Positions 311-39,300 of a stretch of DNA of 64,000 nt are shown piece after piece; position 1 is the stretch's first letter, and every line of letters starts with the position of its first letter. The stretch covers positions 151,156,001 to 151,220,000 of the forward strand of contig OX597817.1 in the NCBI GenBank assembly GCA_951406725.2. The letters are read 5' to 3'. Position numbers and translations under genes: made by a program. Under the pieces are notes generated by a model that ran no database searches, was not told the DNA's origin, and worked only from the letters and a program-made list of their open reading frames with translations. The stretch comes from Octopus vulgaris (lineage: Eukaryota).

Positions 311-3300
311 CTGAAGAATTAACCATGTAAAATAAAGTTCAGAAAAACAAGCAACAAACAAAACAAATTACAAAAAAATAATTGTACAGGACTACAGAAG
401 AGCAAATTATGAATTCTGAGAGTCATTATATCAGATGCACAAACAATTCTGCCAAATTACTACCTTTTCCCTACTAGAATAGAACTGATGAGAATTTAAA
501 GAAAATCAAAATTCTGATAGTCTGGTTAATAATAACCTGATCTCGTGAATTTTAGGCCAAATTCCTCCTCTTGGCCGACAAATAGTCTTGTTTTGGCGTC
601 ACATACATTTTGCATATGTAAAGAAATTAAATACTAAATAAGAATAAGTATATATAATACATATATATAAGTATATATAATAAATAAATAAATAAATAAT
701 ATATATACGTATATGTATATATATATATATATATATATATATATATTCAACAATATTAAGGAATGGCCTTGATAGGCCATTCGACCCACTAGAAAGAGCA
801 GCTAAACTCAAACTGCTAAATAGTTGTAATTCAGAAACCAAAGGAAAATAAAAACATTTACCCTTATACCCGTATAAGGGTAAATGTCTTTATTTTCCTT
901 TGGTTTCTGAATTACAACTATTTAGCGGTTTGAGTTTAGCTGCTCTTTCTAGTGGGTCGAATGGCCTATCAAGGCCATTCCTTAATATTATTGAATGTAT
1001 ATTATACAGTCTGTTGACTATTTTTTTATTTCTCACTGGACCGCTGGTGGCGAAAAATTTCTCTTGAATTTTTTGCTGCCCTGATATTGATTAATATATA
1101 TATATATATATATATATATATATATATATATATGCATATACATATACATATATATATATATATATATATATATATATATATATATATATATATATTATAT
1201 ATATATGTATTTTTTCGATGTGTACAAATAACATGGAAAAAATAAATAAATAGTTACCAGGGTAGCAAAAATTCACTTAAGAGCCAAGGATATTACAGAC
1301 TACTTATAAAGGTAAAAATTCCAGGGTTTGGTGAAATATGGCATGGATAAATTAAGAAATGGAGTTAAACGCAGGTGTTATTCAAATCTTTATACTTCCG
1401 ACATATGTTTCAAAGAAAACATTCATATTATTCCAGAGGGAATAAAATGGTGTAAAACAATGTAATCATCTCGTCAGTAATCACATTCAGTTAAAATCGG
1501 TTATTGATATGTTTTGCTTCTCTTTTTTTGCCTGACGAGATGATTGCATGTTGTTTTACATCACTTTATTCTCTTTGGAATGATATCAATGTTTTCTTTG
1601 AAACATATGTTGGAAGTATAAAGATTTGAATAACACCTGCTTTCAACTCCACTTCTTAATTTATATATATATATGTATGTATGTATATATGTATATATAT
1701 GTATATATGTATATATATATATATATATATATATATATATATATATATATATATGTATGCAATCAAAGCAATTAAGATTCAAGTCAATTCCAATGAATTT
1801 ACTTGAATGTGGTACTTAACTTAGATGCACCAGAAAAACTATATGGTGTTAACCATACAGTAATGTGGGGTGATTATAAACGAGAAAGAAGCAACAAGAA
1901 TGGATTAGTTTTTAGTACAATTGTTTCATACAAAGACAGGCTTTATTACAAGTTGCAAAAATTGCAGCAGATAAAAGTGTCCCGTACTCATCAGCTAAAA
2001 TACATATGAGTTCTCCAAACATCTTAGTGGGTGAGGTTATACTCATGAAATATTGGAGATAATTTCATTAAAGGCAGATATAGGTTGCAAACAGATTTCC
2101 AAAGTTCCTTAATGATGATGCACAGTCTTATCACAGATTCTTAAAAGCTTATTAATTTCACAGAGAAGATGAATTAATCCGTAGTGTAGATTTAAATTTC
2201 CAGAGATATGAGGAGGATGATGCACAGACTTCTCACAGGTTTTTAAAAGCTTATTAGCTTCACAGAAAAGGTGAATTAATCCGTAGTGAAGATTTAAATT
2301 TCCAGCGATATGAGGAGGAATTTCATACTCACAGACGATGAATTTATCCATTGTTAATCCACAATCATTTCATGCTATATGATAAGGTATTTACCACATT
2401 ACTGCTCTCCATGCAAAACTGCTATGTTAAGATTTCTAAAAGCTGAAGGAATTTATTTGTGGGGCAAAGAAAAGAAAAGAAATAGAAAAGAGACAAGGAA
2501 AAAAGAAAAAGAAAAAGGATAAGAAAAAGAAAGAAGGAAAAGAAAAAGAAAAAGAAAAAAGAAAAAAAGAAAAAAGAAAAGAGAAAGAGAAACGGGGAGA
2601 CGAAAAGAAAAAGAAAAAGGAAAAGAAAAAGAAAAAAAGGGGAAGAAGGGAGAAAAGAAAAGACGCCTATAAAGAGTATACTGTGACAACTTAGAGGGAG
2701 GGGGTTCTAAAGTGACCAAATACAGAAGAATTTGTAGACGGCCTATTTAGCTTGAATCTGTAAGAATCCAGGAACTATGAGGAGAAAATTATTTTTGACC
2801 AGTAAACAGCTATTTACTATCAACCTGACGTAGATGAAAGCAGATATGAATCTAAAGAGAATTTAAAGAGATAAACAAGGTCAGGTGTAGAGGGGTCAAA
2901 AGCTATCGTCAAAAGGAAATACATTAAGAGAAAAGATCTAAGTGCAACCCTAACCAGAGGTCATTTAAATTTATTTATTTATTTATTTATTCTTGTTACT
3001 ATCTTAAAATTGTTGCCGTTACTATCAATACATTAACAGACTACCAGTCAAAATTTAGAATTTAGTTAACAAGGTGTGATGGAATTGTCTATTATATTGA
3101 AGTTTCTCATACTACTTTCAAGGGTGTATCTTTACTTATTTAATTTTGTAATGGAATTGTTAAGCCTTAGTAACTTATTTTATTAAAGTTGTGTTACCTA
3201 AACTAGATTAAGTTCAAAAATTAAAAATTAAGATTTAAGAATTAAATAAGAATTAAATAAACTCTCATTTAAGCAACGTACGAGTACTATTTATTTCCTA

Positions 3301-36300: not shown

Positions 36301-39300
36301 CCTATATGCCAAGGAAACCGGGAAACTGGCCCTTATGAGCCAGGCATGGCTTGAGAAGGAACAAACAACAATATAAATTATGAGTCAAGAGTGGTGCTCA
36401 ATGTAATCAGCTTATCTCCTGTCCAAATTGGTCCTGATCCCTGCAATAGACTGGCATCCCATTCAGGTGTTATGTTATAATCTCAGATACTTATATGCCA
36501 TGGAAACTGAATAACTGGCTTTATGAGTCCTAGGGCTAAAGAAAAATGTCAACTGAGCTATTTGTAATATTGTGAATGTTTAATTGAAAATATATAACCT
36601 TAAGACATGAGAGCTGCAGCTGGCCAAACCATTGGGATGTTGGCTTGTCAACTGAAGGTACAATATGTATCAACAACAAAAACAACAACAACAACAACAG
36701 CAGAAACAACAACAACAACAACAACAACAATTTAAATTGAAATGTCAAAAGTAAGTGAAAAAAAACACATACCTCATATGGTTGGTATAAAGATGAGTTT
36801 AATGCAGGTGGCTCTATTTGGAAAACAGCATGAGAATTTTCACACTACCAACACAAGAACAAAGAATAAGCAAATATTAATCTTTCTGTTCAGTAACAAG
36901 AATATATTCATTATAAAAGACAGAAGCAGTATTATTTCAAAACAGCAATATGTGTGTCATATGTAAAGTAGATACATTGTTGAAAGCCTGATAAACTGTG
37001 GCATTCATCTCGAGATAGCATCTTGTGCTTTTAACTATATGTCTATAAGAGATGATATCTCAGGACTAATACCACAGTTTATCAGGCTTTCAATGCTGTA
37101 TCTACTTTAAATATGATACAGAGATAGCTATGAATATATTTTTGATTCATTAAGGGTATGGGTCTAGTCCTAACGTCTGGCTGATATTGACTGCATTGAT
37201 GATAAAATAATTTGTGAAACTACATCCTCATTGAACAGTAGTTAAAGTTAATATATTTAATTCCAGGGGCATTAAATCGTTAACCAGAAATAATTGTATC
37301 GTGAAATATAATACCCATCATCACCTAATATTATTCTTTTTCTTCCCTACATAATTATTTCTAGTTAGCTTTTTAATGACTTCCTGCATTAAATATGCTA
37401 ACACTGACTTATGGACTCTTAGACAACTCACACACACACACACACACACACACACACACACACACACACACACACATTGTCAATGGATTATATATCCACA
37501 AAAGAAGCACACTCTAAATGCTAGAGCAGTAATGCATTTACAGGAAGTTAATTATATGACCGGTCATAGAGTGACCAATGATATAACATCGAGGAGTCAT
37601 CTATAAGGCTAAGTGCTTTATAGATGCAAAACCATTGGTCACTTTATGACATGCCATATAATTAGCATCCTGTAATATATATATATATATATATATATAT
37701 ATGTGAAGGCGCATGGCTCAGTGGTTAGAGCGTCGAGCTTACGATCGCGAGGTTGTGAGCTCGAATCCCGGACCGGGCTGCGTGTTGTGTTCTTGAGCAA
37801 GGCACTTTATTTCACGTTGCTCCAGTTCACTCAGCTGTAGAAATGAGTTGCGACGTCACAGGTGCCAAGCTGTATCGGCCCTTGCCTTTCCCTTGGACAA
37901 CATCGGTGACGTGGAGAGGGGAGGCCGGTATGCATGGGCGACTGCTGGTCTTCCATAAACCACCTTGCCCAGACTTGTGTCTAGGAGGGTAACTTTCTAG
38001 GTGCAATCCCATATATATATATATATATATATATATATATATATATGTATATATATACATTTTCTACATTTTTTATTATTTTTATTTTTATTTTTATAAC
38101 TTTATACCTTTATATTAATTTATATTTTTTTTTATTTTTTATATCTTTATATCTCTTTATATCTTTATACTCTACATTTTTATATTTTTCTATACTTACA
38201 CTTTTTTTATATTTTTCTATACTTACACTTTTTATATATTTTTTATCCTTCGTCCTGAATTCTTGCCCCTCCATCTTTATCTCTATTTACTCTTATTACC
38301 AGGTTCCTTCACATCTGTCTGTATTTATACATTTATACATTTATATATGTATATATTTATTTATTAATTTATTTACATTACTTCAACATCCAAACTTCCT
38401 CATTCTACATTGAGAGAAGAACGAGATGGACGCTTCATTTTTATGCTGTTGCCGCATTATGTCGTACGCGAATGAGAGGATTTGCATCCCCAACCAAGAA
38501 TTTTTGATGTAATACATGTCCTTGCAGAAGTAGTTGTGCGTGGCTGAAGAAGGCTACAGACATACATTATGCATTGTTATAAATCCGTCTAATAAAGGCC
38601 CGAAACATATGTACCGCTGAATCCTTGGCGTCATGTTTTTATTTTGATTAATATATATATATATATATATATATACATTCATTTATATATATATGGTAGC
38701 CACTAGCATAACTAGAGTGTGTCACCTGGGGTGGCCCTTCCATTTGCTGCCCCCAGACCCCATGAAAAACACATATTGACTACACCAATAGCCTACAACA
38801 GGATAAAAAGTGCCATCCCGTTAAAAGTGGCACCCTGGTGGGGCTGCCCTCCCCCATCCCCCAGTTATGTTAGCTATGGTTTAACAAGTTCTTGAAACAA
38901 ACTGACCAATAAGTGACCTTTGTAATTTTTCTATTTACCCTTTTAATATCAAACAGCTGAAACAGCACTTGGTTTCATAATACAAAACCTCACATTAAAA
39001 GAGTAATTTTATATCTAATTCTTTCAAGATTTAACAACACTAAATGGAATATGTTTATAAATGTACTGACCAGATCTTGGCTCCAATGCCACCAGACAAT
39101 TTCACCTTCTTCTATCACAAGAATCGATGGCTGGAACATGTTGTCTAAAACATTGATTTTGTATTCCCTATAATTAAAACATTGTAAATTGAACAAAGTT
39201 TTTGTGAAGCAAACCAACTTGTCAATAATTGTAAAATATAACAAGAGCACTCAGAGAGCACAAACCTCCACCAAGGCAGCACCAACGTCCTCTCAACGAT

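Follow-up and report, generated by a model that had tools for sequence, protein, structure and literature searches.

Type I hammerhead motifs with a long stem II insert at putative Penelope-like 3' ends in the Octopus vulgaris genome

A window of 64 kb from Octopus vulgaris (contig OX597817.1; "window" refers to this whole stretch) contains six type I hammerhead motifs in four elements, which we designate A, B, C and D. The explanation that we favour, and hold to be probable, is that these motifs sit at Penelope-like 3' ends in (TA)n, that B belongs to the Hydra clade, that A, C and D are likely similar, and that the long arm in the position of stem II is a tolerated expansion. The element class, the TA targeting and the dimer-type stem III are already in print; what we did not find there is a stem II of 45-61 nt in such octopod motifs.

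Hammerhead motifs in the window

An earlier note on this DNA had described four sequence-unrelated elements carrying CTGAnGA, GAAA, a palindrome and an NUH site. A relaxed descriptor (CUGAnGA, insert, GAAA, 6-nt palindrome, UH) run on the window located six such motifs in the four elements, as against a mean of 0.077 matches in 300 block dinucleotide shuffles. When the palindrome requirement was dropped and AC..GU was fixed, the same six motifs were recovered, all of them palindromic (shuffles: mean 0.073, maximum 1). A seventh match at +18596 had a 4-nt palindrome and no stems and was excluded. In a stricter scan, three closing pairs were demanded in stem II and only the B pair was retained, because C and D start stem II with a mismatch (A.A in C, A.C in D) and A is degenerate. 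None of the six motifs was among the matches listed by an Rfam scan of the window (150 of 156).

Motif A+ (1532..1611, plus strand; core 1532-1538, starting at +1532) has H17 at 1611, the triplet GUU and an insert of 61 nt, while A- (1400..1477, minus strand; core 1477-1471, starting at -1477) has H17 at 1400, GUC and 59 nt; both carry the palindrome CATATG. The two B motifs share GUA, a 60-nt insert and CAATTG. B- (1910..2000, minus strand; core 1994-1988, starting at -1994, insert 1987-1928, H17 at 1916) is sense to the open reading frame (ORF), and B+ (5826..5916, plus strand; core start +5832, H17 at 5910) lies in an inverted copy, antisense to the ORF. Hammerhead C (22885-22804, minus strand; core start -22876, H17 at 22813) has GUA, a 45-nt insert and CCGCGG, and hammerhead D (38540-38617, plus strand; core start +38544, H17 at 38613) has GUA, a 51-nt insert and CATATG. 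The palindromes are those of the earlier note and grow to a perfect 8 nt when A15.1/U16.1 is counted. The note's stem II of ~50-60 nt applies to five inserts (51-61 nt) but not to that of C.

The core (CUGAnGA, GAAA, NUH) is undamaged in all six motifs. Contiguous stem I pairs number 6 in both B copies, 9 in C and 4 in D (at least 4 pairs in four of the six motifs). A+ has one contiguous pair and a degenerate stem I in which four of the first six positions pair; A- has none, the inversion junction lying at its core and the 5' arm of stem I being gone. This pairing in B, C and D, with a degenerate stem I in the 1395-1616 pair, had been noticed before and read as covariation; since the sequences cannot be aligned, it is a structural agreement rather than statistical covariation. 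By their sequence all six belong to the type I hammerheads of Penelope type; stem III is palindromic, and self-cleavage is predicted at H17. The same assignment, including TA association and an unusually long stem II, had been proposed earlier and is borne out.

Anatomy of elements A to D

Element A (1211..1664) is an old, severely 5'-truncated foldback insertion with arms at about 1350-1477 and 1532-1664 (81% identical) and a one-sided tail of ~135 nt (1211-1346). Its anatomy is like that of B, an inverted head plus a one-sided tail, with A truncated at the core. Element B (1759..5945, minus strand) is a 5'-truncated, putative Hydra-clade Penelope-like element. It carries an inverted 5' copy of its own 3' end (arms 1875-2091 and 5735-5951; 217 nt, 99% identical), a tail at 1759-1874 and a 3' untranslated region (UTR) of 1.45 kb (1451 nt, versus 77-1083 nt in relatives). 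Elements C (22706..23150, minus strand, between TA tracts) and D (38380..38650, plus strand) are solo non-coding 3' ends with approximate 5' borders. BLAST and core-masked local alignment found the four elements mutually unrelated; of the 9 cross-element pairs compared, the weakest case was B-D (3 of 300 shuffles).

The paired motifs of A (1395-1616) and B (1911/5827) are on opposite strands and, therefore, these insertions cannot give a dimer inside one transcript. None of the four elements is a direct tandem array, and A, C and D have no second copy within the window.

Coding region of element B

The minus-strand coding region of B comprises a reverse transcriptase (RT) and then a C-terminal GIY-YIG endonuclease, broken by a frameshift and a stop. 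The RT core (5166..5777) contains PMGS and YRDD motifs, with the frame shift near 5160-5180. An in-frame stop near 5020 precedes the region at 3445..5019, also on the minus strand, which holds the RT thumb, Asn-rich inserts, a CxCX5C linker and the endonuclease with CxxC and CxH. The linker reads CKCRIKSRC, in place of CX2-5CxxC. The endonuclease shows YIG, CQLC..E (CxxC) and N..E..CVH (CxH), beside the conserved E and N. Its IY-to-YIG segment contains one Cys that by eye is unconserved in alignments, and the cysteines of the CCHH motif are absent from the GIY-YIG core. B is truncated before the N-terminal RWK and DKT motifs, which are present in 59 of the 88 related loci and in the homologues P0075 and P0148. 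A Pfam scan gave no match above threshold.

According to Craig et al. (2021, PMC8557442), the Hydra clade is defined by a C-terminal GIY-YIG endonuclease, CxCX5C, CxxC and CxH. The linker and endonuclease motifs of B fit this definition and thus place B in the Hydra clade and not in Neptune or Naiad. Neptune was rejected on the Hydra-defining motifs, and the CX2-5CxxC linker and CCHH motif of Neptune, Nematis and Naiad (for Naiad also an N-terminal endonuclease) were not found in B. The nearest named proteins are octopod, one from Argonauta hians and the others from Octopus sinensis, the latter being mis-annotated models. In a 39-row RT tree, built without named Hydra references, B clusters with the Argonauta hians protein (support 99/89, bootstrap not fully settled). 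Locus L088 serves as the anchor of the comparison set, its hammerhead agreeing with that of Hydra-2_aMil in the core and stems I-III. Three viral-contig scans yielded no relatives. Judged from its coding sequence, element B is a broken Hydra-clade Penelope-like element.

Element B also has a 102-nt duplication in the 3' UTR (2114-2319) and long Asn-rich ORF inserts (3900-4400). Related octopus copies of B are mis-named in databases as kinase and myelin regulatory factor. No RNA data set is recorded as containing element B, which says nothing about its expression.

Association with (TA)n

All six hammerheads have (TA)n 37-193 nt downstream. The arrays are located left of A (1094..1210), between A and B and common to both (1662..1758), right of B (5946..6104), upstream of C (23191..23248, with a shorter TA tract on the 3' side ending at 22705) and at the 3' end of D (38651..38694). 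(TA)5 or longer was present within 200 nt downstream of all six sites versus 8.8% of other window positions, a cut that was chosen post hoc. The earlier note had each element bounded by (TA)n. This is right for the downstream side of every motif, but the left TA border of D is ~320 nt from the motif, the gap being AT-rich low-complexity DNA.

Measured from the predicted cut, short ends lie at 37-50 nt and tailed ends at 107-193 nt. Where the short ends of A and B meet (TA)n, the bases of the element are TA-like, which hints at primer annealing. The B family was surveyed over 1759-2110 at 80% likeness in contigs from four runs, X1, X3, X9 and X14, each labelled as a different organism. At position 1875, loose ends in (TA)n were seen in 8 X3 contigs and 10 X14 contigs, and the inverted copy meets (TA)n there too. 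Element B thus shows the (TA)n insertion that is a Hydra criterion; Craig et al. (2021, PMC8557442) record (TA)n for all but one of 27 Hydra families, and Hydra-1_Obim from Octopus bimaculoides is among these 26.

In the same contigs, X9 and X14 have loose ends at place 1995, which point to a possible B subfamily whose 5' stem I arm differs. Summed contig depth was much greater over the hammerhead than upstream; it is no measure of copy number and does not enter the argument. A joint of 1837 to 1918 that ends next to the predicted cut was seen in a single contig and was likewise set aside.

The stem II insert

The inserts of the six motifs (45-61 nt) compare with 12-26 nt in 26 published Hydra rows (own count), and the stem II arm in the window is ~3x the usual length. 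What we call stem II here is a loosely paired insert. Only one of the six inserts folds better than its shuffles (A-, z -2.6; others 0.0 to -1.5), and core-masked local alignment found no sequence common to the inserts of A, B, C and D.

The comparison covered 88 loci that encode related proteins and had been ranked by their resemblance to another protein; genome contigs supplied 11 of them, and the other 77 came from the best 80 of 455 confirmed stretches of metagenome. A CxC..CP linker is present in 83 of them. With a strict descriptor, 46 loci had a hammerhead past the ORF (42 distinct). In these 42 the insert is 10-30 nt long (median 17). Stem III is AC...GU in 41, 8 nt long in 4 and a perfect palindrome in 7, and the triplet is GUA in 30. 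The first stem II pair is U.U in 23, non-Watson-Crick pairs being common there. (TA)5 or longer lies 32-117 nt past H17 in 18 of the 46 loci. The strict descriptor detected no hammerhead in the other 42 loci. Loose rescanning of 33 of these (the other 9 end at most 41 nt past the ORF) returned short inserts of 10, 12 and 19 nt and no long insert; an 82-nt pairing was rejected as a short motif with a damaged core. Core style, cut triplet, the odd first stem II pair and TA spacing are clade traits. The window motifs are set apart only by arm length and by the uniform 8-nt palindrome.

The 11 loci L078-L088 are Hydra-type elements in prokaryotic assemblies, likely animal-host DNA in symbiont bins.

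In the B family contigs, 31 of 352 places vary at a share of at least 4%. At this level the core, GAAA, the palindrome, the cut site and the six stem I pairs are unchanged, and the insert has no insertion or deletion in any of the four runs, which indicates that the 60-nt arm is the family norm and not a quirk of one copy. The insert has 9 common changes at 8 places: 4 fall on unpaired positions, 2 preserve a pair and 3 disrupt one, the majority allele at 1949 being among the disruptive ones. Two-sided compensation was absent among these nine.

The cost of opening the core was 2.3-8.1 kcal/mol in the window compared with 0.1-8.6 kcal/mol (median 3.75) in 40 relatives. The palindrome is predicted to be unfavourable when folded into a 2-bp hairpin (+1.9 to +2.4 kcal/mol) and favourable as a duplex (-6.4 to -14.1 kcal/mol), which fits the dimer model.

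Comparison with known systems

An Octopus family, targeting of (TA)n and hammerheads whose stem III is AC...GU are already in Craig et al. (2021, PMC8557442), where 26 Hydra hammerhead rows are tabulated with a stem III that by our count is always AC...GU and 9-10 nt long. The radiation of TA-targeting families suggested by the earlier note is, therefore, correct as to Penelope but already published as the Hydra clade, including Octopus. B shares with this clade the C-terminal GIY-YIG, CxCX5C, CxxC, CxH, (TA)n and inverted 5' copies, as well as a type I hammerhead near the 3' end with an AC...GU stem III. The differences lie in the insert (23 nt in Hydra-1_Obim versus 45-61 nt), in stem III (9-10 nt with a 1-3-nt centre versus a perfect 8-nt palindrome) and in size, B measuring 4.2 kb though truncated versus under ~3 kb for published Hydra elements. 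Searching for the six 11-nt window motifs in the supplement of that paper gave no relevant match. Its File S2 lists stem II inserts of ~50 nt, flagged as deviating, in the spike-moss elements PLE-X1_sMoe and PLE-X1_sTam. These are likewise Penelope-like hammerheads with ~50-nt inserts, but they come from an unrelated, endonuclease-less plant lineage with a 28S rDNA target and have no 8-nt palindrome.

Cervera and de la Pena (2014, PMC4209133) describe metazoan Penelope hammerheads that have low activity, occur in opposite-strand pairs and carry a palindromic stem III of dimer type, and the dimer model is summarised in a review (PMC6765202). The window motifs share with these minimal hammerheads type I topology, a short stem I, a palindromic stem III proposed to act as a dimer, opposite-strand pairs and many solo truncated copies; unlike in the window motifs, the stem III loop of the minimal forms is mostly absent. 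In the descriptor of that study, stem II may have 3-7 bp and its loop 3-10 nt. The inserts of the window motifs are longer than this canonical arm, so that the motifs would be missed by it.

For Poseidon of Anolis carolinensis, internal RT starts explain the tails, and the hammerhead cleaves only with protein, cleavage being unneeded in vitro (Frangieh et al. 2024, PMC11167929). Poseidon, the source of the mechanism inferred below, resembles the window elements in its pseudo-long terminal repeat (pLTR) hammerhead, one-sided tail and AT-rich targets; it differs in belonging to another clade and in an RT start without homology to its target, in contrast to the TA-like short ends of A and B. Non-LTR retrozymes are direct tandem repeats of ~300 bp that give rise to circular RNA (Cervera and de la Pena 2020, PMC7229834). 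They have in common with A-D type I hammerheads, a weak palindromic stem III and occurrence as animal repeats, including in molluscs, but they are tandem and A-D are not. No long-armed octopod hammerhead was found in the literature searched; a long-stem variant is possible in Lunse et al. (PMC5785218) or Arkhipova et al. 2017 (PMC5850863).

Discussion

In our favoured explanation, the GIY-YIG endonuclease would nick (TA)n, as published work on the group suggests, and reverse transcription would start at internal sites shortly past the ribozyme, giving rise to short and tailed ends. The 8-nt palindrome, which is too weak as a hairpin in the energy model, would instead hold two copies of the ribozyme together by base pairing. 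Cleavage would then depend on a partner RNA or on a transcript with tandem copies, and the element protein would probably assist. The long stem II would represent the expansion, inherited in an octopod sub-lineage, of an arm that was already length-free in the clade. Most likely this tolerated expansion adds little beyond padding. The simplest reading follows from a lineage that also expanded in its ORF and 3' UTR and from relatives whose inserts already range over 10-30 nt. As for A, C and D, each is likely the truncated 3' end of a separate Hydra-like family, three in addition to that of B.

Several observations weigh against this explanation. An insert of 45-61 nt together with a perfect 8-nt palindrome in four unrelated families is tighter than free drift needs, and this narrow range argues for some constraint on the arm. 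The free energy minimum is never the hammerhead in the six copies, and the constrained fold of A lacks stems I and II. In the B family, the invariance of the 31 core and stem I positions is only suggestive (~p 0.06, calculated by hand), and contigs contain small low-share insertions in the A-run of stem I. A tblastn search with 11 homologues gave no ORF remnant in any of A, C and D, and their clade is assigned from RNA style and position only. None of the 88 comparison loci belongs to the sub-lineage of B, and the comparison is hence silent on how widely the long arm has spread.

Some of these points can be turned into a functional reading of the arm, in which stem II of an octopod Hydra sub-lineage is a domain of its own, either a handle bound by the RT-endonuclease or a switch in core folding. 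The shared arm length and palindrome, the indel-free B insert and the free folds of B, C and D, which trap the core in a hairpin with the flanking arms, agree with it, as does the protein dependence of the Poseidon hammerhead (PMC11167929). However, a single insert in six beats its shuffles, the inserts share no sequence, a third of the common B changes break a pair with none two-sided, and short-armed relatives show similar energy gaps. We regard such a domain as unlikely. The fuller version, an obligate-dimer hammerhead whose stem II serves as docking site or switch for its own RT-endonuclease, is equally doubtful. At the opposite extreme, the motifs might be catalytically dead relics kept only within the terminal repeat: the window copies fold poorly, and for Poseidon hammerhead mutants transpose in vitro and no reads end at the cut site (PMC11167929). 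Decay of this kind is hard to reconcile with a core that is whole in all six copies, even in the 81%-identical A pair, and with the lack of a common core variant among the B family contigs, and we consider it quite improbable.

The remaining alternatives concern the identity of A, C and D. The earlier note had spoken of retrozymes, and these three elements are indeed short, non-coding and hammerhead-bearing; moreover, non-LTR retrozymes have been argued to derive from Penelope-like pLTRs (bioRxiv 10.64898/2026.07.22.740005). In this reading they would spread as non-autonomous retrozymes via self-cleaved circular RNAs. Retrozymes, however, are direct tandem repeats with at least two same-strand hammerheads (PMC7229834). 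A is an inverted pair with a B-like tail, C and D are single, and the window holds no second copy. Nor is the proposal supported for the four elements as a whole, which include no direct tandem array, have their paired motifs on opposite strands and, in B, encode an RT-endonuclease. We judge it very unlikely. There is likewise a slim chance that A, C and D descend from a different Penelope clade that targets TA, namely Naiad, Neptune or Nematis. Octopus Naiads insert in (TA)n, Naiad_Ovul is listed with 'HHR_half_core', and Neptune has a microsatellite bias. Yet the 3' ends of Naiad_Ovul and Naiad_Obim carry GAAAC before CTGATGA, reversed and by eye unlike A, C and D, and an AC...GU stem III of 8-10 nt is the Hydra pattern; the supplement of PMC8557442, as mentioned, lacks a relevant match to the 11-nt motifs. 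The Naiad 'half cores' of Craig et al. were rejected as the window motif for Octopus Naiads because of this reverse order (GAAAC, then CTGATGA).

Other features of the window

Unlike A-D, the plus-strand region 29050-30005 looks in sequence like a non-LTR retrozyme array. Three units of ~327 nt (71-78% identical) form a decayed tandem there and bear short-armed motifs that resemble type I hammerheads (cores 29135 and 29784), with a 10-nt AC...GU stem III; Rfam RF00163 scores 32.7 bits at 29778-29824 (cut-off 34). A heavily decayed remnant of another Hydra-type RT/endonuclease region lies at 52954-53566 on the plus strand (tblastn E down to 3e-4). The window further contains a TA-bounded foldback (734-994, 96%) with a small terminal hairpin and without a hammerhead core, a foldback resembling a miniature inverted-repeat transposable element (48925-49749; 299-nt arms, 92%) with inward-facing (CCCTAA)n-like tracts, and an exact 182-nt tandem duplication (56392-56756).

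Implications

Published descriptors limit stem II to ~24 nt and the high-copy octopod form would escape them, so that cephalopod ribozyme counts may be too low. For the question of what the hammerhead does in Penelope-like elements, including dimer cleavage and protein assistance, the window offers a single design in four natural versions that are unrelated to each other. If the functional reading of the arm were true, long-armed ribozymes may form a large hidden class in cephalopod genomes, which may include Penelope-like families now listed without hammerheads.

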